NCBI GenBank assembly: GCA_965198325.1
Contig: CBDAPE010000019.1
Coordinates: 335,063 to 399,062, forward strand
DNA length: 64,000 nucleotides
Direction: 5' to 3'
Source: Alphaproteobacteria bacterium
Lineage (GTDB): Bacteria > Pseudomonadota > Alphaproteobacteria > UBA828 > JAPUJA01
Positions 3,720-33,402 of the stretch are shown here, one piece after another. The first letter of the stretch is position 1. Every line of letters begins with the position of its first letter. The notes under the pieces are model-generated. The model did not search any database. It saw only the letters and a program-made list of their open reading frames with translations, and had not been told where the DNA came from. Both the position numbers and the translations under genes were made by a program.

Positions 3720-3816
3720 TGGCGGAAGAGAGTGGGAGTCGAACCCACCCGGGACGCGAGCCGCGCCCCACACCGGGTTTGAAGTCCGGGCGCCCCACCG
3801 GGGACGAGCCTCTTCC
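3720..3816 (-). tRNA. selC: tRNA-Sec (selenocysteine tRNA, anticodon TCA)
   Basis: The 97-nt reverse complement has the defining Sec structure: 8-bp acceptor stem (GGAAGAGG/CTCTCTTCC), 6-bp D-stem with 4-nt loop (CGTCCC-CGGT-GGGGCG), anticodon loop CTTCAAA identical to E. coli selC, long variable arm, GGTTCGACTCC T-arm, CCA. It lies immediately downstream of selB. Confidence 0.9.
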
Positions 3817-3847: not shown

Positions 3848-5776
3848 TCAAGCGACGGGGCGGCCGGGCCGGTCAGAGCCTCGATTTCGCAGCCGCCGCA
3901 CCGTATCGAGACGCTCGGTCAAACCGGTACGGTCGAAATACTCCAGCACTTCGATCGCGAGATTTCGACCGATCCCCGCCCGGTCGCGATAGGCGGCGAC
4001 GGTGAAGCGGCGATCCGGGGAGTCCATTGCGAGCGCTTCGGCGGCCGCCGCCAGATCGCGCACATGGTCCACTGAAAGAAACCGGTTTTCGGAGACTCGC
4101 GCGACCAGACCCAGGCTCTCCGCGCGTTGCAGGAACCGCCGGAGGGCCGCAGTCTCGAGGTCGAGGCTTTCGGCCAGTTCGTGGACCACCGGCGCCGCGG
4201 CGCTCGATGCAAGTTGCGGTCGGACGCGCCGCCACAGCGCCTGGTCCGGCCCAGGCAACGTCGGCTTGAAATCGGCCAGGGCGAGCCGGGCACCCATCCG
4301 CCGGATTTTGCCCGTTTCCGCCAAGGCGTCGACGACGCCCTCGATCAGGGGAATCGGCACACGCCGCTCGAGCCTGCGCCGCAAGCGGTCGACCTCGATG
4401 CCGGTTCGTTCCGGCTGTTCCTCGTGGCCACGCCCCAGCGCAGCGAGGATGGCTACCTTCAGGGCACGGCCGTGAGCAGGCGACAGGCCGTAGCGAGACG
4501 CCGCCCGATCGACGTGCACCATATCGGCCGCCCGCCACAGCGCCGCGGCGGCGGCTACCGTCAGGTTGCGCGCGCAGGCGAACCGGTTGAGATCGACCCC
4601 GTCCGGTGTCGCGACGAGCAGCGCGGCGAGAGCATCGGGGGCGCTATCGGCCGCCATGCCGGAAAGTGCCGCGAGACGGGCGTGTTTGGCCCGCCCGCGC
4701 GCGGGCGCGAACGGGTCGATGACCCGGCCGCCGCCGACGGTGTGCCGGGAGGTGCCGTCCCTGAGCACGAAGCGGTCGCCGAACAGTGCACCGATGGGGC
4801 GGTCAAGGACGAGTTGGGCGAGCCCCGTCTCTCCGGGCTCGATCGACTCGCGATCCAGCGGATGAACCCGGGCGGTCACGTGGGCCGCGCCGAGGTAGAG
4901 ATGCACGAGCGTTCTCGACCGGAGCACCCGGCGTTCTCCACCCAGCACCCGGATACATCCGTCGAGGCGCGGCGTCGGCGCGTGAGCGGGTTCGGCCACC
5001 AACCAGTCGCCACGGCCAATGTCCGTCCGGCTCAAGCCGCGCCCCGCAATATTCAGCGCACAGCGCTCGCCGGCTCTCGCCTCGGCCGCCTCCCGGTTGT
5101 TGGCGTGAATCCCCCGCACACGAACCGCAGCGCCCATCGGTGAAAGAACCAGGCTATCGCCAATCTGCGCCGTTCCCGACCAGACTGCGCCGGTTACGAC
5201 CAGCCCTGCGCCATCCAGCGTGAAGCAGCGATCGATCGCGAGGCGAAAATTGCCGCAGGGCGCTCTTGGCGCCAGCGCCGCCGCCTCGCGCTCCAGCCAC
5301 GCCCGAAGGGCCGCGATGCCTTCGCCCTGCGGGCTCGCGACGGGAAACACGGGCGCGCCGGCCAGCGGGCCCTCCCCCAGCAACGCAACCAGGGCGCCCA
5401 TCACCTTGACCCGCCTCGTCTCATCGATGCGGTCGATCTTGGTGAGTGCGACCGCTCCGCCCTCGATCCCGAGCAGCTCGAGAATCGCCAGATGCTCCGC
5501 TGTCTGCGGCATCGGCCCCTCGTCGGCGGCAATCACGAGCAGCGCCCGGTCGATTGCTCCGACCCCGGCCAGCATGGTGGCTATGAAGCGCTCGTGACCC
5601 GGCACGTCGACGAACCCCAGCATGTCCCCGCCCGCCGTCGGCTGGTAGGCAAAGCCCAGGTCGATCGACAGGCCCCGGCGCTTCTCCTCCGCCAGACGGT
5701 CCGTCTCGATCCCGGTCAGCGCGCGGACGAGCGCGGTCTTGCCGTGATCCACGTGCCCTGCCGTCGCGCCGATCAT
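3848..5776 (-). CDS. selB: selenocysteine-specific translation elongation factor SelB
   Basis: 642 aa. N-terminal GTPase (AGHVDHGKTAL, DVPGHERF, TKID), then EF-Tu-like domains and C-terminal winged-helix region. Its start overlaps the selA stop (ATGA). Confidence 0.9.
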   Translation of the reverse strand: MIGATAGHVDHGKTALVRALTGIETDRLAEEKRRGLSIDLGFAYQPTAGGDMLGFVDVPGHERFIATMLAGVGAIDRALLVIAADEGPMPQTAEHLAILELLGIEGGAVALTKIDRIDETRRVKVMGALVALLGEGPLAGAPVFPVASPQGEGIAALRAWLEREAAALAPRAPCGNFRLAIDRCFTLDGAGLVVTGAVWSGTAQIGDSLVLSPMGAAVRVRGIHANNREAAEARAGERCALNIAGRGLSRTDIGRGDWLVAEPAHAPTPRLDGCIRVLGGERRVLRSRTLVHLYLGAAHVTARVHPLDRESIEPGETGLAQLVLDRPIGALFGDRFVLRDGTSRHTVGGGRVIDPFAPARGRAKHARLAALSGMAADSAPDALAALLVATPDGVDLNRFACARNLTVAAAAALWRAADMVHVDRAASRYGLSPAHGRALKVAILAALGRGHEEQPERTGIEVDRLRRRLERRVPIPLIEGVVDALAETGKIRRMGARLALADFKPTLPGPDQALWRRVRPQLASSAAAPVVHELAESLDLETAALRRFLQRAESLGLVARVSENRFLSVDHVRDLAAAAEALAMDSPDRRFTVAAYRDRAGIGRNLAIEVLEYFDRTGLTERLDTVRRLRNRGSDRPGRPVA

Positions 5777-7190
5777 CGTGAGCCTGCGGGCTGCTCCAGG
5801 GCATCGAGCTGGCCGGCCAGCGCGTCCTCGTCGTCGAGGCCCCTGAGGTCGAACCGAAGGGCGCCGTCCTCGATCCGCCCGATCACCGGAACCGGCAAGG
5901 CGCGGAAGGCCGCCGCCAGCCGCTCGAGCGCCTTGCCGCTCCCCCGCCTGCCGGTGTTCGGGCTCAGCGCGAGCGCCACGCTTTCCAACCGGCTCGCGGG
6001 CTGGGCGCCGCTGCCCACTTGGCAGTCGGTTGCGATGATCTCGACCGCCACCCCCTCGAGCCTGGCGGCGAGCAGGGGCCCCAGGCGGCGAGCTACGGCC
6101 TCGATCTCGGACAACGGCCGGGTCATCTGGCGCAAGGCCGGCAGGCGCGCGGCCAGCCGGTCCGGATCGTCGTATAGCCGCAGCACGGCGTCGAGCGCGG
6201 CGAGGCTCAGCTTGTCCAGCCTGAGTGCCCGCTTCATGGGATTGCGGCGGAGTCTGGCGATCAGGTCCCCGCGCCCTACGATCAATCCTGCCTGGGGGCC
6301 GCCCAGCAGCTTGTCGCCGGAAAAGCTCACCAGATCGGCGCCGTGGGAAACCGCCTCGCCCGCCGTGGGTTCATGGGGCAGGCCGTAGCGCGCGAGGTCC
6401 ACGAACGCGCCGCTGCCGAGATCCACGATCAGCAGCAGCCCGTGATCGTGCGCCAGTGCTGCGAGCGACCCTTCGGGCACGGCTGCGGTAAAGCCCCGCA
6501 TCTGGAAATTGCTGAGGTGAACCCGCAGGATCAAGGCCGTGCGCGGCCCGATCGCATCGGCATAACCGGAACCATGCGTGCGGTTGGTGGTGCCACCTCG
6601 ATAAGCCGGCAGCCCGCGCGCGCCATGATGTCGGGAAGGCGGAACGAGCCGCCGATCTCGATCAGTTCGCCCCGCGAAACGATGACCTCCTTGCCCTTCG
6701 CAAGGCTGTTGAGCGCGAGCAGCAGGGCTGCTGCGTTGTTGTTCACCGCGGTCGCGGCCTCGGCCCCGGAAAACCGGCAAAGCCGCTCCTCGATATGGTC
6801 CTCGCGCTCTCCCCGCCGTCCTTTGGCGAGATCGTATTCGAGCGTCGAAGGGCCACGCGCCACCGCCGCGATTGCCGCGATCGCCTCTTCGGGCAGGCTC
6901 GCGCGGCCCAGATTAGTATGGATCAGCGTGCCCGTCAGGTTGAGCACGGGCCGCAGACTCGGCTGGCCGCGCGCGGCAAGGCAGGCGCCGACCCGTTCCC
7001 CGATCGCGCCTTCGCTGGCCTCGGGTGGATCGGCGGCCGCGTCCGCCGCCACCGTATCCCGCCAGTCGGACAGCACCGCGCGCACCGCCATGGTCGTGGC
7101 GTCGCGGCCGTGCGCCTCGATCAGCGCCTGGACGACCGGAAACCGCAGCACCCGGTCGACCGAGGGTATCGCTCGGTGCAATGAACTCAT
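5773..7190 (-). pseudogene. selA: L-seryl-tRNA(Sec) selenium transferase SelA, frame broken by a 1-nt deletion
   Basis: N-terminal part is ORF 6531..7190 (...AGCRLIEV|APPTARM*). C-terminal part is ORF 5773..6780 read one frame back (...GTTNRTHGSGYADAIGPRTALILRVHLSNFQMRGF...). Restoring one G in the GG run at about 6593-6596 (gaggtgGcacc to gaggtgGGcacc) gives the conserved SelA segment RLIEVGTTNRTH in one ~470-aa frame. Confidence 0.8.
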
Positions 7191-7474: not shown

Positions 7475-8464
7475 ATGTCAAAGGCACAGGTGATCCACGA
7501 ACTCGGCCCGCCCGAGGCCATGCGGTGGGAAGAGTGGGCGGTACCCGATCCGGCGACCGGCGAAGTCCGCTTGAGGCACACGGCGGTGGGCGTGAACTTC
7601 GCCGACACCTACCACCGGGGGGGCGTCTCCCATCCGGTGCGGGTGCCGGCCTGCCCGGTGGTGGTCGGGTTTGAAGGGGTCGGGGTCGTCGAGGGCGTCG
7701 GCGACGGTGTGAGCTAATTCAAGCCCGGCGATCGCGTTGCCTATGGCATCCCGCCGCTGGGCAGCTATTCCGAGGTGCGGAACTATCCCGCCGACAAGCT
7801 TCTCCATCTGCCCGACGGCCTTGATGAACGGGTTGTGGCCGCGCTCCTCATGAAGGGGATGACGGCCCATTACCTGTTACACCGGACCTACAAGGTGCAG
7901 CCCGGCGATACCATCCTGGTGCACGCCGCGGCGGGCGGCATGGGACTCATCCTGTGTCAATGGGCCAAGGCGCTCGGCGCCACGATCGTCGGCACGGTCA
8001 GCACCGAGGAAAAGGCCGAGGTCGCCCGCGCAGCGGGATGCGACTATCCGGTCGTGCGCTCCAGGGAGGATTTTGTCGCCAAGGTTCGTGAAGTCACCAA
8101 CGGTGAAGGAGCGGCCGTCGTCTATGAGGCGATTGGCAAGGACACCCTGCAACAATCGCTCGACAGCCTGCGGCTGATGGGCGTCTGTGCGGCCTATGGC
8201 CATGTCTCGGGCCCGCCCGATCCGGTCGACGTGATCCAGGACCTGGGTCGCCACGGCTCACTCTACATTACCCGGCCCGCGATCACGCACTACGTGGCCA
8301 AGCGGTCCGACCTTGAATGGACGGCCCGGGATCTCTTCAAGGCCATGGACGATGGAATTCTGGACGCGAACATCAATTACGAGTACCCGCTAAAGGACGC
8401 CGTCAAAGCCCATCAGGCACTCGAAAGCGGCACGACACTCGGCGCGACGGTTCTCATCCCCTGA
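7475..8464 (+). pseudogene. qor: quinone oxidoreductase (Qor-like, MDR/zinc-ADH superfamily) interrupted by an in-frame TAA
   Basis: ORFs 7475..7717 and 7775..8464 share a frame and together form one Qor-like protein (...GVVEGVGDGVS * FKPGDRVAYG...AAGGMGLILCQWAKALGA...). The TAA at 7715-7717 sits where Qor proteins have a sense codon before the conserved FKPGDRV. Good RBS GGGGGAGA before the ATG at 7475. Confidence 0.75.
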
Positions 8465-10649: not shown

Positions 10650-11849
10650 CTAGGCCCAGAACCGGGGCACGATAAGAAACATCTCCACGAGCTGCTTGAG
10701 CGCCTTGTCGTCGCTCTCTTCGCTCAGCGCCTCGAGCGCGAGGATCGCCTTGGCGGCCTTGGTCTCGGCCCAGAACCAGTCGCCGAGATCTTCCATCCCG
10801 GTCATCCCTCGTGAGCCGCTCGCGGTCTCGGTGTAATAGGCCCAGAGGTCTTCGCAGGCGAGCTTGAGCATCATGAGCGGGGGCACGCCCTTGCGCGGGC
10901 TCTTGACCTTGTCGGTCGTCAGCCAGCTGACGATAAAGGGTGCCAGCTCCTCGATCGCCAGCTCGCTCGCCCCGACGGGCGTCCGCCCGCGCCGGGCGAC
11001 CGCCGCGTCGTACTCGGGCCGGATTTCGGCAATCTCCGCCTGGATTTCGGCCAGCAGCCTTGCCGGGTCCGCCCGGTCTTCGGGCTTCGAGACCAGTTCG
11101 TTCGGCAGGGCATGGGTCATGCGCCGGCCGCGTATGGGAACGACCACGGGATAGTCGGCCAGAACCGGCCCCACGGGTGCGTCGAACAGAGCGAAGGCGG
11201 CGCGGATGACGCCTTTCTGAAAGTCGGGATCGTTCGGCTTGCCGAACGGGCGGCCCATGGGCATGTCGAGCCACAGCGCACGGGGCGCCCCGATCGCGGC
11301 GGCATGCTCGCGGACGAAACAGACCAGCGTCGTTGCCAGCCCCTCTTTCTCGAAGAAATATGCAAGCCCGCACACGGTGCGCGTGCAGAACGGTCAGACG
11401 GGGGCGAGCAGAACCGTGTTGACGCCCTCGGCCTTCATGCGGCTCGCGACGTCGTGCACGCTCTTTTCATACTCCAGCGGGTCGGTCGCGCCCATGAAGG
11501 AATAATGGGTCTCGGCCACCGCGCCGATCTCACCGTCCGCCGCCATCTCCTTCAGGCGGTCCACCGGCAGGATCGCATTGAGGTCCTGCTACCACGCGGT
11601 GCGGTCGTAATCCACCGCGACATGAGTCATCACGAGGTTCTTGTCGTCGGCGTCGAACGCCCGGTAATCCCGAGCGGACCAGCTAAACGGCTTGTCGCCC
11701 CGTTTGCTCAACCCCGCCGAGGAGACCACCGCCACCTTGCGCTCACGTGCAGCCACGGGCGCCGTCCAGGGCCGGTCCGCAAAATCCGGCATTTCGAGCT
11801 CCTCGAACATCTCGCGTGGCAGCTTCGGCATGTCATGCATCAGAACCAT
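10650..11849 (-). CDS. candidate selenoprotein (family unresolved, possibly GrdB/PrdB-like reductase B); one frame carries an in-frame TGA (Sec?) at 11394-11396 and an in-frame TAG at 11589-11591
   Basis: ATG at 11849 with GAGGAG 6 nt upstream. Frame reads 86 aa, TAG, 64 aa (...MKAEGVNTVLLAPV), TGA, then PFCTRTVCGLAYFFEKEG... for 247 aa (the ORF-track piece 10650..11375 starts at an internal GTG). U-x-x-C redox motif; GC hairpin 6-26 nt after the TGA. selABC is 4 kb away. Confidence 0.45.
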
Positions 11850-11922
11850 CGCTCGCTCCTCATCCTCAAGCCGTCGAGCGGCGCCAGCTTAGTAAAGCTC
11901 CGCCCTGGCGGACACAGCCTCT

Positions 11923-30442: not shown

Positions 30443-30487
30443 GACGCGGGCGCCGCACGGCGCACCGGCGACCGGCCTGAGGCGCCC

Positions 30488-31177
30488 ATGAAAGCTGCCG
30501 TCATCGTCTTTCCCGGCTCGAACTGCGACCGCGACGTGCAGGTGGCGCTGGCCAGGAGCATGGGCGCCCCGCCCCTGATGATCTGGCACAAGGACACCGA
30601 GCTGCCCACGCTCGACCTGATCGTCGTGCCGGGCGGGTTCTCCTACGGCGATTACCTGCGCTGCGGCGCCATGGCCGCCCATTCGCCGATCATGCGGGAA
30701 GTCAAGCAGTACGCCGCCACGGGTGTGTGCGTTCTCGCCATCTGCAACGGCTTCCAGGTGGTCACCGAGGCGGGCCTGCTGCCGGGCGTGCTGATGACCA
30801 ATGCGAACCTTCAGTTCATCTGCAAGGACGTCACGTTGCGGGTCGAGACGACCGACTCGGCCTTCGCTCGCCGCTATTCCGAGGGCCAGGTGATCCGCCT
30901 GCCGATCGCCCACCACGGCGGCAACTATTTCGCCGACGACGCAACGCTCGAACGCCTTTCAGGCGAGGGGCGGATCGCGTTCCGCTATTGCGCGCCCGAC
31001 GGCACGCTCGACGAAGCGTGGAACCCCAACGGCTCGCGACAGGCGATCGCCGGCATCTACAACAAGGACCGCACGGTGCTCGGCATGATGCCCCACCCCG
31101 AGCGCCTCGCCGACCCCCTGCTGGGGGGTTCGGACGGCATCGCGATGTTCGAGGGGCTGATGGACGCGCTGTCGTGA
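30488..31177 (+). CDS. purQ: FGAM synthase glutaminase subunit PurQ
   Basis: 229 aa. Class-I glutamine amidotransferase ([14 protein letters not shown]). Confidence 0.92.
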
Positions 31178-33402
31178 GCGAGGCGGCGATCACGCCCGAA
31201 ACCGTCGAACGCCACGGGTTGACGGCGCAAGAGTACGAACGGGTTCTCGAGATCATGGGCCGGGAGCCGAACCTCACCGAACTCGGCATCTTCTCGGTGA
31301 TGTGGAGCGAGCACTGTTCCTACAAATCGTCCAAGAAATGGCTGCGCCGTCTGCCGACGGACGCACCGTGGGTGATCCACGGCCCAGGCGAGAATGCGGG
31401 CGTCGTCGACATCGGCGACGGCCAGGCGGCGATCTTCAAGATGGAAAGCCACAACCACCCCTCCTTCATCGAACCCTATCAGGGCGCGGCGACGGGGGTC
31501 GGGGGAATCTTGCGCGACGTGTTCACCATGGGCGCCCGCCCGATCGCCAACCTCAACGCCCTTCGCTTCGGTGAGCCCGAAAACGCCAAGACCCGCCACC
31601 TCGTGAGCGGCGTGGTTTCGGGCATCGGCGGCTACGGCAATTGCGTCGGCATCCCGACCGTGGGCGGCGAATGCACGTTCCACGCCTCGTATAACGGCAA
31701 CAACCTGGTCAACGCGATGACCGTGGGGCTGGTGGACCGGGACAAGATCTTTCTCTCGGCCGCGGGCGGCATCGGCAATCTCGTGGTCTATGTAGGCTCG
31801 AAGACCGGGCGCGACGGCATTCACGGCGCGACCATGGCGTCAGCCGAGTTCGACGAGGATTCGGAGGCCAAGAAGCCCACGGTGCAGGTCGGGGACCCGT
31901 TCACGGAAAAGCTGTTGATCGAGGCCTGCCTTGAGCTGATGGCGACCGACGCGATCGTCGCGATCCAGGACATGGGCGCCGCGGGACTGACCTCGTCGAG
32001 CTTCGAGATGGCCTCGAAGGGCGGCACGGGAATCGAGATGGATCTGTCCGCCGTGCCCGTGCGCGAAACCGGCATAACAGCTTACGAGGTCATGCTGTCC
32101 GAAAGCCAGGAGCGGATGCTGATGGTCATCCCGCCCGGGCGCGAGGCCGATGCCCGCGCGGTGTTCGAAAAGTGGGAGCTGGATTTCGCGGTGGTCGGCA
32201 CGGTGACCGATACGGGCCGGATGCGCCTCGTCATGGCCGGCGAGACGGTCGCCGACCTGCCGATCGCCCCGCTTGTGGCCGCGGCACCCGAGCTCGACCG
32301 GGCCCATGACGCGCCGGCGGAGCCGGACGCGATTGGAGAGCGCGCGAATGCGGCACCGGCCGGCACGCGCGAAGCGCTTCTCCGCCTGCTCGGCTGCCCG
32401 GACCTGTGCTCGAAACGCTGGATCTGGGAGCAATACGACCACATGGTGATGGCCGACACTGTGCAGCGCCCGGGCGGCGATGCGGCGGTCGTGCGCGTCC
32501 ACGGCACCGACAAGGGCCTCGCCCTGACGATCGACTGCACACCGCGTTACTGTGCCGCCGACCCGAAGACCGGCGGCGCCCAGGCGGTCGCCGAAACCTG
32601 GCGCAACCTGAGCGCGACAGGCGCCACACCGCTCGCCATCACCGACTGCCTCAATTTCGGCAACCCGGAACGCGCCGACGTGATGGGCCAGTTCGTCCAT
32701 TGCATCGAGGGCATGCGCGAAGCCTGCCTGGCGCTCGACTACCCGGTGATCTCCGGCAACGTCTCGTTCTACAACGAGACCAACGGCAAGGCGGTTCAGC
32801 CGACCCCGGGAATTGGCGGCGTCGGCCTGATTTCGGACCTCTCCCGGATGGCTACGCCTGCCTTCGCGCGCGCCGGGGAGAGCATTATTCTGATCGGCGA
32901 GACCGCCGGGCACCTGGGGGCATCGCTCTATCTGCAGGTGATCGGGGGCATCGAGGCGGGCGCGCCGCCGCCCGTGGACCTGGGCGCGGAACGGCAGACC
33001 GGCGATTTCGCGCGGGGCCTGATCACAGCGGGGCGGGTCAGCGCCTGCCACGACATCGCCGACGGTGGCTTGATGGTGGCCCTGGCCGAGATGGCGCTGG
33101 CAACGCTGGCAAACGGCGAGCCGATCGGAGCCGACGTGGAGCCCGCGAACGGGGCGATCCCCCTGCATCGCTGGCTGTTCGGCGAGGACCAGGCACGCTA
33201 TCTGGTGACGGCCCGAATGGACGAGGCCGAAGCGATCCTGGCGGACGCGAGGACGGCGGGAATCCCTGCGGCGCGGGTCGGCGTCACGGGCGGCGATGCG
33301 TTGACTCTGGCGGGAGCCGATGCCATATCGTTAGCCGAACTCAATGCGGCGCACGAAAGCTGGCTGCCCGATTACATGGCCCGCTCCCAAGACCGCGGCT
33401 AA
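31174..33402 (+). CDS. purL: FGAM synthase large subunit PurL
   Basis: GTG at 31174 overlaps the purQ stop (GTGA). 742 aa. The ORF-track piece 30727..33402 includes a spurious upstream extension. Confidence 0.92.

Follow-up and report, generated by a model that had tools for sequence, protein, structure and literature searches.

A probable, recently inactivated GrdB/PrdB-superfamily selenoprotein gene near a frameshifted selA in an alphaproteobacterial contig

Selenoproteins listed as "proline reductase PrdB," which match pfam07355 and carry a UxxC motif in which U is selenocysteine (Sec), have been catalogued from marine metagenomes since 2005 and are among the most abundant selenoproteins of the Sargasso Sea; 42 Sec sequences come from that sea, and GOS has 235 with Sec and 110 with Cys (Zhang, Fomenko & Gladyshev 2005, PMC1088965; Zhang & Gladyshev 2008, PMC2398784). 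"Proline reductase" selenoproteins are also listed in Anaeromyxobacter and Geobacter (PMC1794560), and PrdB has been reported from Clostridium sticklandii (Kabisch et al. 1999, as cited in PMC13188914). The Sec trait is lost once the main selenoprotein client has been lost, with remnants of the sel genes persisting for a while (Zhang et al. 2006, PMC1794560; for the Helicobacter pylori lineage, PMC4607533). Here we describe a gene of 399 codons on the minus strand of a 64,000-nucleotide stretch of contig CBDAPE010000019.1 from an alphaproteobacterium, referred to below as the window. We consider it likely that this gene encoded a selenoprotein of the GrdB/PrdB superfamily until its recent inactivation, within a Sec trait that is itself decaying. 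A preliminary description, made from the window sequence, had implied a functional and novel selenoprotein gene; its functionality is contradicted by a nonsense codon, a broken helix in the selenocysteine insertion sequence (SECIS), and a frameshifted selA, and its novelty is contradicted by the surveys cited above.

Like the catalogued marine family, the window gene combines a pfam07355 match with a UxxC Sec motif, and its relatives are mostly marine (Rhodobacteraceae, SAR116, and Granulosicoccaceae). The two are equated here through the shared Pfam model, motif, and habitat, that is, by description rather than by sequence comparison. They differ in that the surveys describe neither a C-terminal domain nor a missing PrdA partner and in that the window copy is probably a pseudogene. 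The window gene would best be regarded as a new, decayed member of an already catalogued family and not as a new selenoprotein family.

The gene occupies a single frame that opens at an ATG (11849..11847), runs through two internal stops, a TGA at codon 152 and a TAG at codon 87, and closes at a TAG (10652..10650; Table 1). The preliminary description had correctly read the ATG, its Shine-Dalgarno sequence, and the continuation through the TGA, and this Shine-Dalgarno sequence is also kept in relatives with 82% identity (L004, L005, and L007). The TGA stands, as had been noted, in a U-x-x-C motif, V-U-P-F-C, within the context ...NTVLLAPV-U-PFC-TRTVCGLAYFFEKEG... (LLAPV-U-PFC-TRTVCG). The TAG at codon 87, in the context ...DYDRTAW-stop-QDLNAILPVDRL..., is also real; it had been translated as X, but its consequences had not been weighed. 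A list of open reading frames (ORFs) shows the gene as pieces, at 11589..11849 (86 aa) and 10650..11375 (241 aa, with a GTG start). This GTG had been placed two codons inside the motif, whereas it actually lies four codons past the Cys of UxxC and seven past the TGA. Intact orthologues of 399 aa (L004, L008, and L088) are collinear with the window gene, which is laid out as an N-terminal alpha/beta domain (codons 1 to ~220) and a C-terminal helical domain (~260 to 399).

Table 1. Features of the selenoprotein locus and of the Sec machinery, in window coordinates
Feature	Position	Strand	Basis or detail
PrdB/GrdB-superfamily selenoprotein gene, 399 codons, interrupted (probable pseudogene)	10650..11849	-	Translation, PF07355, collinear orthologues
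Shine-Dalgarno sequence GAGGAG	11856..11861	-	6 nt upstream of the ATG at 11849
Premature TAG, codon 87, ancestral CAG (Gln)	11589..11591	-	Sequence and relatives
Putative Sec codon TGA, codon 152, first residue of U-P-F-C	11394..11396	-	Sequence and homologue alignment
Helix A (hairpin of the preliminary description)	11368..11388	-	nt 9-16 with 22-29 (9/10-16 with 22-28/29), loop nt 17-21 GCACC
Helix B (family-consensus putative SECIS)	11366..11382	-	nt 15-20 with 26-31, loop nt 21-25 C-G-U-G-N (window C-G-U-G-U)
Thr291-to-Pro in conserved GRTTVG motif	10977..10979	-	Window only (column 922: C, versus A in all others)
selA (selenocysteine synthase), frameshifted	5773..7190	-	Two-frame mapping and DNA alignment
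selB, open frame of 642 aa	3848..5776	-	ORF list
tRNA-Sec (selC), anticodon TCA	3720..3816	-	ARAGORN; Rfam RF01852, 73 bits (gathering 47)

The TGA at codon 152 appears to be the Sec codon of the family, and the evidence for this is strong. A scan of one genome per species returned at least 578 loci, and among the best 80 of these from other species, 78 have TGA at the aligned site, one (Luminiphilus, L082) has TGC, and the remaining locus has a scrambled upstream frame. A word-indexed search of 5.8 billion proteins returned mostly proteins of 241 to 253 aa that start just past the TGA, along with a few full-length proteins of 415 aa reading ...LPVCPNCSRTVCG..., and an N-terminal query gave 381 matches; 120 of these were listed, and almost every one has a length of exactly 151 aa, i.e., is cut at the TGA. 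An exhaustive HMMER search with the Cys form found 2220 relatives, and 18 of the best 150 are full length (367 to 419 aa). Cys occupies the U position in 10 of the 11 long forms examined (379 to 419 aa), the other having Gly (P0276), and the site reads CxxC in the full-length Cys forms P0035, P0161-P0171, P0181, and P0185. Because the occurrence of Sec and Cys at one aligned site is the pattern that defines selenoprotein families, the TGA is taken as a Sec codon. Orthologues do not start after the TGA, and homologues do align Sec or Cys with it, so the selenoprotein assignment withstood both of the tests that the preliminary description had proposed for it. At one locus (L073, around 10001), the Sec/Cys position is GGG and the upstream frame is unrecognizable; it may be another decayed or N-terminally divergent copy.

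Nearly every database entry is annotated as if the TGA were a true stop between two adjacent genes of 151 and 241 aa, in which case there would be no selenoprotein at all. There is next to no chance that this is correct. Single-chain, full-length homologues have Cys at the TGA position, and alignments to the NCBIfam PrdB and GrdB-type profiles run through the site without a break. No Shine-Dalgarno sequence precedes the downstream "gene," which would start at a GTG inside a conserved motif; extreme synonymous constraint and a covarying hairpin follow directly after the TGA, and the locus shows linkage to selA/selB in roughly half of the genomes. The two-gene reading is thus effectively refuted already. 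Public databases systematically split the family into a 151-aa "PrdB" fragment and a hypothetical protein of 241 to 253 aa that begins at the GTG in the conserved motif, and several of the 151-aa fragments bear the name "D-proline reductase PrdB" or "selenoprotein B family" in their source databases. The conserved UGA together with the SECIS (nt 15-31, loop CGUGN) would allow these split entries to be merged.

Codon usage after the UGA was examined in 78 unique Sec-type sequences and is nearly frozen over six codons: ACG for Thr at +4 (76/78), CGC for Arg at +5 (66/68), GCC for Ala at +6 (73/78), GUG for Val at +7 (69/77), UGC for Cys at +8 (36/37), and GGG for Gly at +9 (37/41). Codon entropy at +4 to +9 is 0.18 to 0.63 bits, compared with 1.4 to 2.3 bits at comparably conserved four-fold sites elsewhere, and the synonymous freeze persists in the AT-rich genes of SAR116 and Rhodobacteraceae. 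The Cys form L082 has the same residues after the site but encodes them with unrelated codons (TGT TCG AGA ACT GTT).

Two mutually exclusive hairpins compete within this segment, in which SECIS positions are numbered with the U of UGA as nt 1. The preliminary description had proposed as the SECIS an 8-bp GC hairpin (helix A; CUGCACGC/GCACC/GUGUGCGG at +6..+26 after the UGA). Helix A does form in the window sequence, but across 69 homologues, it has 89% of cells paired, zero compensatory changes, and statistics equal to those of shuffles, and its loop begins 13 nt after the UGA, outside the 16 to 37 nt of the bacterial SECIS (bSECIS) model (PMC13188914). It was rejected as the SECIS because it shows no covariation and its spacing is too short. 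Nor is its stability above chance: single-sequence folding of the 70-nt segment after the UGA gave a z of -0.33, with a fold as good or better in 66 of 200 shuffles, although single-sequence stability is uninformative in the GC-rich DNA of the window.

Helix B, the family consensus, has 91% of cells paired and double-sided changes at three pairs; pair 16:30, for example, is C-G in 59 sequences, U-A in 7, and G-C in 2. Its covariation is 0.127, compared with 0.065 in shuffles, and none of the 500 shuffles reaches it. Helix B tops all slid controls both in percentage paired and in cells with double-sided changes; none of its own slides equals its covariation score, although a +2 slide of helix A does (0.130). 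RNAalifold picks helix B unaided. The bSECIS model asks for a loop of 3 to 9 nt, a G within the first two loop positions, with G or U as the usual next nucleotide, 16 to 37 nt from UGA to loop, and a minimum free energy of ≤ -7.5 kcal/mol (PMC13188914). In intact relatives, helix B agrees with all of these, having a 5-nt loop, G22-U23, a spacing of 17 nt, and energies of -7.9 to -11.7 kcal/mol, and we take it as the putative functional SECIS of the family. It resembles the bSECISearch model and the Escherichia coli fdhF type (PMC13188914) in the G-U at loop positions 2 and 3 and in an upper stem of 5 to 6 bp. It differs from the bSECIS consensus in that its stem is short, with a G-G mismatch at 17:29 in the marine clade and a second mismatch, A19-C27, in the window copy. 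At the gathering threshold, Rfam matched only the tRNA-Sec and two tRNAs in the whole window, with no match to a SECIS family. Two loci, L054 (Sec codons at 4958 and 6191) and L068 (9970 and 11200), contain tandem paralogues, each with its own TGA and SECIS-like block.

In the window copy, this hairpin is damaged. At SECIS position 19 (11378), the window clade has A where all 69 other sequences have G, and the change breaks the G19-C27 pair, which elsewhere is G-C in 68 sequences and G-U in one. Helix B goes from -7.9 kcal/mol in the sister sequences to -2.5 kcal/mol in the window, outside the bSECIS energy limit. Helix A was seen in the preliminary description because the minimum-energy fold of the window flips to it after the G19-to-A change.

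The TAG at codon 87 interrupts the frame well before the Sec codon. The codon is CAG in relatives with 82 to 86% identity (L004, L005, L007, L008, and L088), and Gln is the majority residue (90%) in this column. In every locus examined from other species, the N-terminal frame stays open over 151 codons or more, with no stop at codon 87. The TAG is common to the window and to near-identical contigs from other assemblies (L001-L003), and these four sequences represent three haplotypes, with five differing positions in the gene. Within the window, TAG commonly serves as an ordinary stop, ending 12 of 45 long ORFs, including this gene, and its reassignment or its use for pyrrolysine was rejected on that ground. 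The clade has further changes at conserved columns (P188A and L276I), and the Thr291-to-Pro change affects a column that is 94% conserved and is absent from the otherwise near-identical L001-L003, which fits continuing drift after inactivation.

The third component is selA. Downstream of the gene are a TetR regulator, an NmrA-like gene, a DUF1772/Anthrone_oxy gene, and a Zn-dependent alcohol dehydrogenase (ADH)-like gene, followed by selA, selB, and tRNA-Sec. The preliminary description had placed selABC about 4 kb away, and the cluster is indeed present, ~3.4 kb downstream, but it is not intact. A 1-nt deletion at 6593/6594 (GTGGGCACC to GTGGCACC, with one G lost) within VEVGTTNRTH shifts the selA frame, which ends at 6531, and two frames, joining at 6594, are needed to map the SelA of L008 to the window. 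The deletion is found in the window and in L001-L003, whereas DNA alignment shows the gene to be intact in L004 and L008; gene calls give 219 and 253 aa for the deleted form, compared with 486 aa in L004, and the L008 ORF is uninterrupted. With selA frameshifted, Sec-tRNA could not be made from this operon. No selD was found by tblastn within the window, which gave only a weak match (E = 0.005, 31510-31857) inside a 973-codon ORF (30481-33402).

The ADH-like gene (7475-8464, plus strand) has an in-frame TAA (7715-7717; ...GVGDGVS-stop-FKPGDRVAYG...) and is split the same way (80 and 229 aa) in L001-L003. It is a third inactivating lesion within 4.1 kb, beside the selA frameshift and the TAG. 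Genome-wide pseudogenization was not supported by a comparison with the syntenic flank of L008, which gave a two-frame split for selA only, plus one probable antisense-ORF artifact.

Several points weigh against the reading of a recently inactivated gene. The nonsense codon and the selA frameshift are known only from assembled sequence, and the samples behind the four assemblies may be related. Apart from the TAG at codon 87 and the TGA, the frame has no further stops or frameshifts. Both selB and tRNA-Sec are intact, the selB of L001 and L002, identical to that of the window, matching Pfam GTP_EFTU, Beta-barrel_SelB, and WHD_SelB, and a second selA or a suppressor may exist elsewhere in the genome, beyond the 64 kb. 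The covariation of helix B rests mainly on pair 16:30, plus single cells at two others, and the G19-to-A change also turns the invariant Ala158 into Thr, so its effect is not assignable to the RNA alone. Finally, the nonsynonymous-to-synonymous ratio of changes is 40:66 on the window branch and 16:30 on the branch of the sister L088, with no detectable difference and no signature of long-term relaxed selection. Set against a nucleotide divergence of ~15%, the lack of a difference means that inactivation must be recent; it fits a very recent inactivation but is no proof of it.

The main alternative is that errors of assembly or base calling, common to these sequences, produced the TAG, the selA deletion, and the ADH TAA and that the real gene and selA are intact. 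Some contig names do suggest long-read assemblies (L001 "ctg..._3x_l" and L002 "contig_60"), L001 does contain errors, as it splits a major facilitator superfamily (MFS) gene that is whole in L002 and L003, and the selA lesion is the loss of a single base from a short G run. However, that run spans only 3 nt, and two of the lesions are substitutions rather than homopolymer indels. All three lesions recur in four sequences that come from different assemblies, are distinct in single-nucleotide polymorphisms, and represent three haplotypes. We therefore regard shared errors as unlikely.

The open frame, its collinearity with orthologues, the conserved Shine-Dalgarno sequence and start codon, the intact selB and tRNA-Sec, and the lack of a nonsynonymous excess on the window branch could also be expected of a gene that still functions, with the TAG read through, suppressed, or tolerated and Sec still inserted at codon 152. 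Such a gene would have to read through a codon that serves as an ordinary stop in the window and that no other species' locus has at this position, and it would have to do so with selA frameshifted in the same genomes and with a SECIS consensus helix weakened by 5.4 kcal/mol, which makes this decidedly unlikely. It is very improbable that the TAG merely trims the gene and that a shortened, active product restarts past it, for instance, at Met103, from which gene finders call a 56-codon ORF to the TGA. The 86 to 102 residues that would be lost hold the opening strands of the alpha/beta core (modeled as E39-44, E63-67, and E75-77) and the conserved VAVVSSAGL, no homologue starts at Met103, and Sec insertion would still be needed with both selA and the SECIS broken. 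Recent inactivation of the gene thus remains the reading that we favor.

The family to which the gene belongs was placed by profile searches with U read as C and the TAG read as X. The window protein matches PF07355 (GRDB) with 52.1 bits (E = 8e-14), above the gathering cut-off of 22, and residues 11-149 align to profile positions 198-345, i.e., the last ~150 positions of the model, ending at the Sec; intact relatives score 30.5 to 51.8 bits. The best NCBIfam model is TIGR04483 (D-proline reductase PrdB; 105.7 bits, E = 2.5e-30, residues 33-219), but its equivalog cut-off of 300 bits is reached neither by the window protein nor by the intact and Cys-form relatives (90 to 136 bits). Scores against the selenoprotein B models of glycine, betaine, sarcosine, and D-proline reductases, namely TIGR01918 (subfamily level), TIGR01917, NF040794, and NF040795 (57.0, 49.6, 62.6, and 58.0 bits) also fall short of the respective cut-offs (65.45, 602, 800, and 775), and relatives score 37 to 52 bits against TIGR01918. 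The GrdB/PrdB-like character proposed in the preliminary description, for which PF07355 had been suggested as a check, therefore stands at the level of the superfamily, whereas the curated PrdB and GrdB cut-offs are not reached; judged by these profiles, the gene is a member of the GRDB superfamily outside the curated PrdB and GrdB families.

The C-terminal part of the protein lies beyond these models. The TIGR04483 profile (238 positions) stops near residue 220 of the 399-aa protein, and the C-terminal ~180 residues have no Pfam match in the window protein or in the intact relatives. In an AlphaFold2 model of the Cys homologue P0035 (predicted local distance difference test [pLDDT] score of 91.1), the U-equivalent Cys155 follows a strand (149-153), Cys158 is at the start of a helix (159-172), and an extra helical domain spans ~264-393. 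A first AlphaFold2 model was disregarded (pLDDT of 64.8); its multiple sequence alignment held N- and C-terminal fragments only, and Foldseek against the PDB returned nothing at E < 0.2. A sequence search of the PDB gave no match at E values up to 1.

Comparison with PrdB shows both likeness and difference. TIGR04483 is the best-scoring curated model, Sec stands in a U-x-x-C motif at the equivalent position, and selenol/thiol pair chemistry is likely to be shared. However, PrdB has ~240 aa and no counterpart of the ~180-aa helical C-terminal domain, its working partners, the pyruvoyl proprotein PrdA and PrdC, are encoded next to it, whereas no such conserved neighbor is found here, and the hosts of this family are largely aerobic marine Proteobacteria rather than amino-acid-fermenting anaerobes. 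With GrdB, GrdF, and GrdH, the family shares the Pfam GRDB match, the UxxC motif, and an alignment to the C-terminal half of GrdB (profile ~196-345) that ends at the Sec. It differs in lacking the N-terminal ~195 residues of GrdB, in scoring 37 to 57 bits against the TIGR01918 cut-off of 65.45, and in having no grdA, grdE, grdC, or grdD in the neighborhood listings. Because the curated PrdB and GrdB definitions are not reached and no partner subunits are nearby, the label "D-proline reductase" is probably wrong.

By analogy with GrdB and PrdB, intact relatives would make a protein of ~400 aa in which UGA at codon 152 is decoded as Sec, directed by the binding of SelB to the SECIS hairpin at nt 15-31. 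The protein would consist of a Rossmann-like PrdB-type domain and the extra helical C-terminal domain, with Sec predicted at the end of a beta-strand and Cys three residues on at the start of a helix, a geometry suited to a selenol/thiol redox center. The U-x-x-C pair most likely cycles between the selenol/thiol form and an Se-S bond during reductive cleavage, as would be expected from PrdB and GrdB (PMC13188914). As no conserved partner of the PrdA/GrdE type is encoded nearby, the enzyme is probably a stand-alone reductase cycling through an Se-S bond and not a true D-proline reductase. In the lineage of the window, TAG has replaced CAG at codon 87, the SECIS has lost its invariant G19-C27 pair, and selA has lost one base in its catalytic core. 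These lesions and their absence from relatives are observed, as are the conserved TGA and the covariation of the SECIS, whereas the loss of function, the sequence in which it came about, and the catalytic mechanism are inferred. No full-length protein is expected from the window copy, and the Sec-decoding trait has apparently been caught early in its decay.

Compared with documented losses of the Sec trait, decay in the window would be at a very early stage, with point lesions in selA and its client while selB and tRNA-Sec are intact. The pattern is the reverse of that in the H. pylori lineage, where selA survives and the other sel genes are gone (PMC4607533). Trait loss of such a kind is already documented, and the window may serve as a natural example, at an early stage, of a selenoprotein gene and the Sec machinery decaying together, from which the order of events in such losses could be worked out. 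A broader proposal is that the window captures the first steps of Sec-trait loss, in which the main and perhaps only client, its SECIS, and selA have taken one hit each with selB and tRNA-Sec untouched, and that the family is an uncharacterized, ocean-abundant selenoenzyme rather than a D-proline reductase, defined by its helical domain, the absence of PrdA, and a compact SECIS; we regard the arguments for and against this as evenly balanced.

Upstream of the window gene and co-oriented with it are the MFS transporter and an enoyl-CoA hydratase (crotonase), as the preliminary description had reported. The family is abundant in marine Proteobacteria, and its gene is often beside selA/selB. Roseovarius aestuarii KCTC 22174 (locus L048) is one cultured bacterium in which the gene is intact. 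When ORFs within ~7 kb of the gene were clustered over 81 loci, SelB (41 loci), SelA (36), and SelD (16) were the only identifiable neighbors that recurred in more than about a dozen loci. No partner of the PrdA/GrdE, GrdA, or PrdC type appeared in this clustering or in the Pfam lists of called neighbors, which did not include a dedicated PrdA profile search of whole genomes. A GcvH-like gene is found just downstream in 7 of the 81 clustered loci; that its product acts as a lipoyl dithiol donor is speculation. In two Roseovarius loci (L089, 8326-14384, and L090, 4485-10543), the gene abuts a convergent gcvH-selA-selB-(64 aa)-selD operon headed by the GcvH-like gene; the SelD of this operon (733 aa) is a fusion with a Pyr_redox_2 domain. 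Two PrdB-like genes flank selA-selB in a gammaproteobacterial metagenome-assembled genome (L091, 2626-8236).

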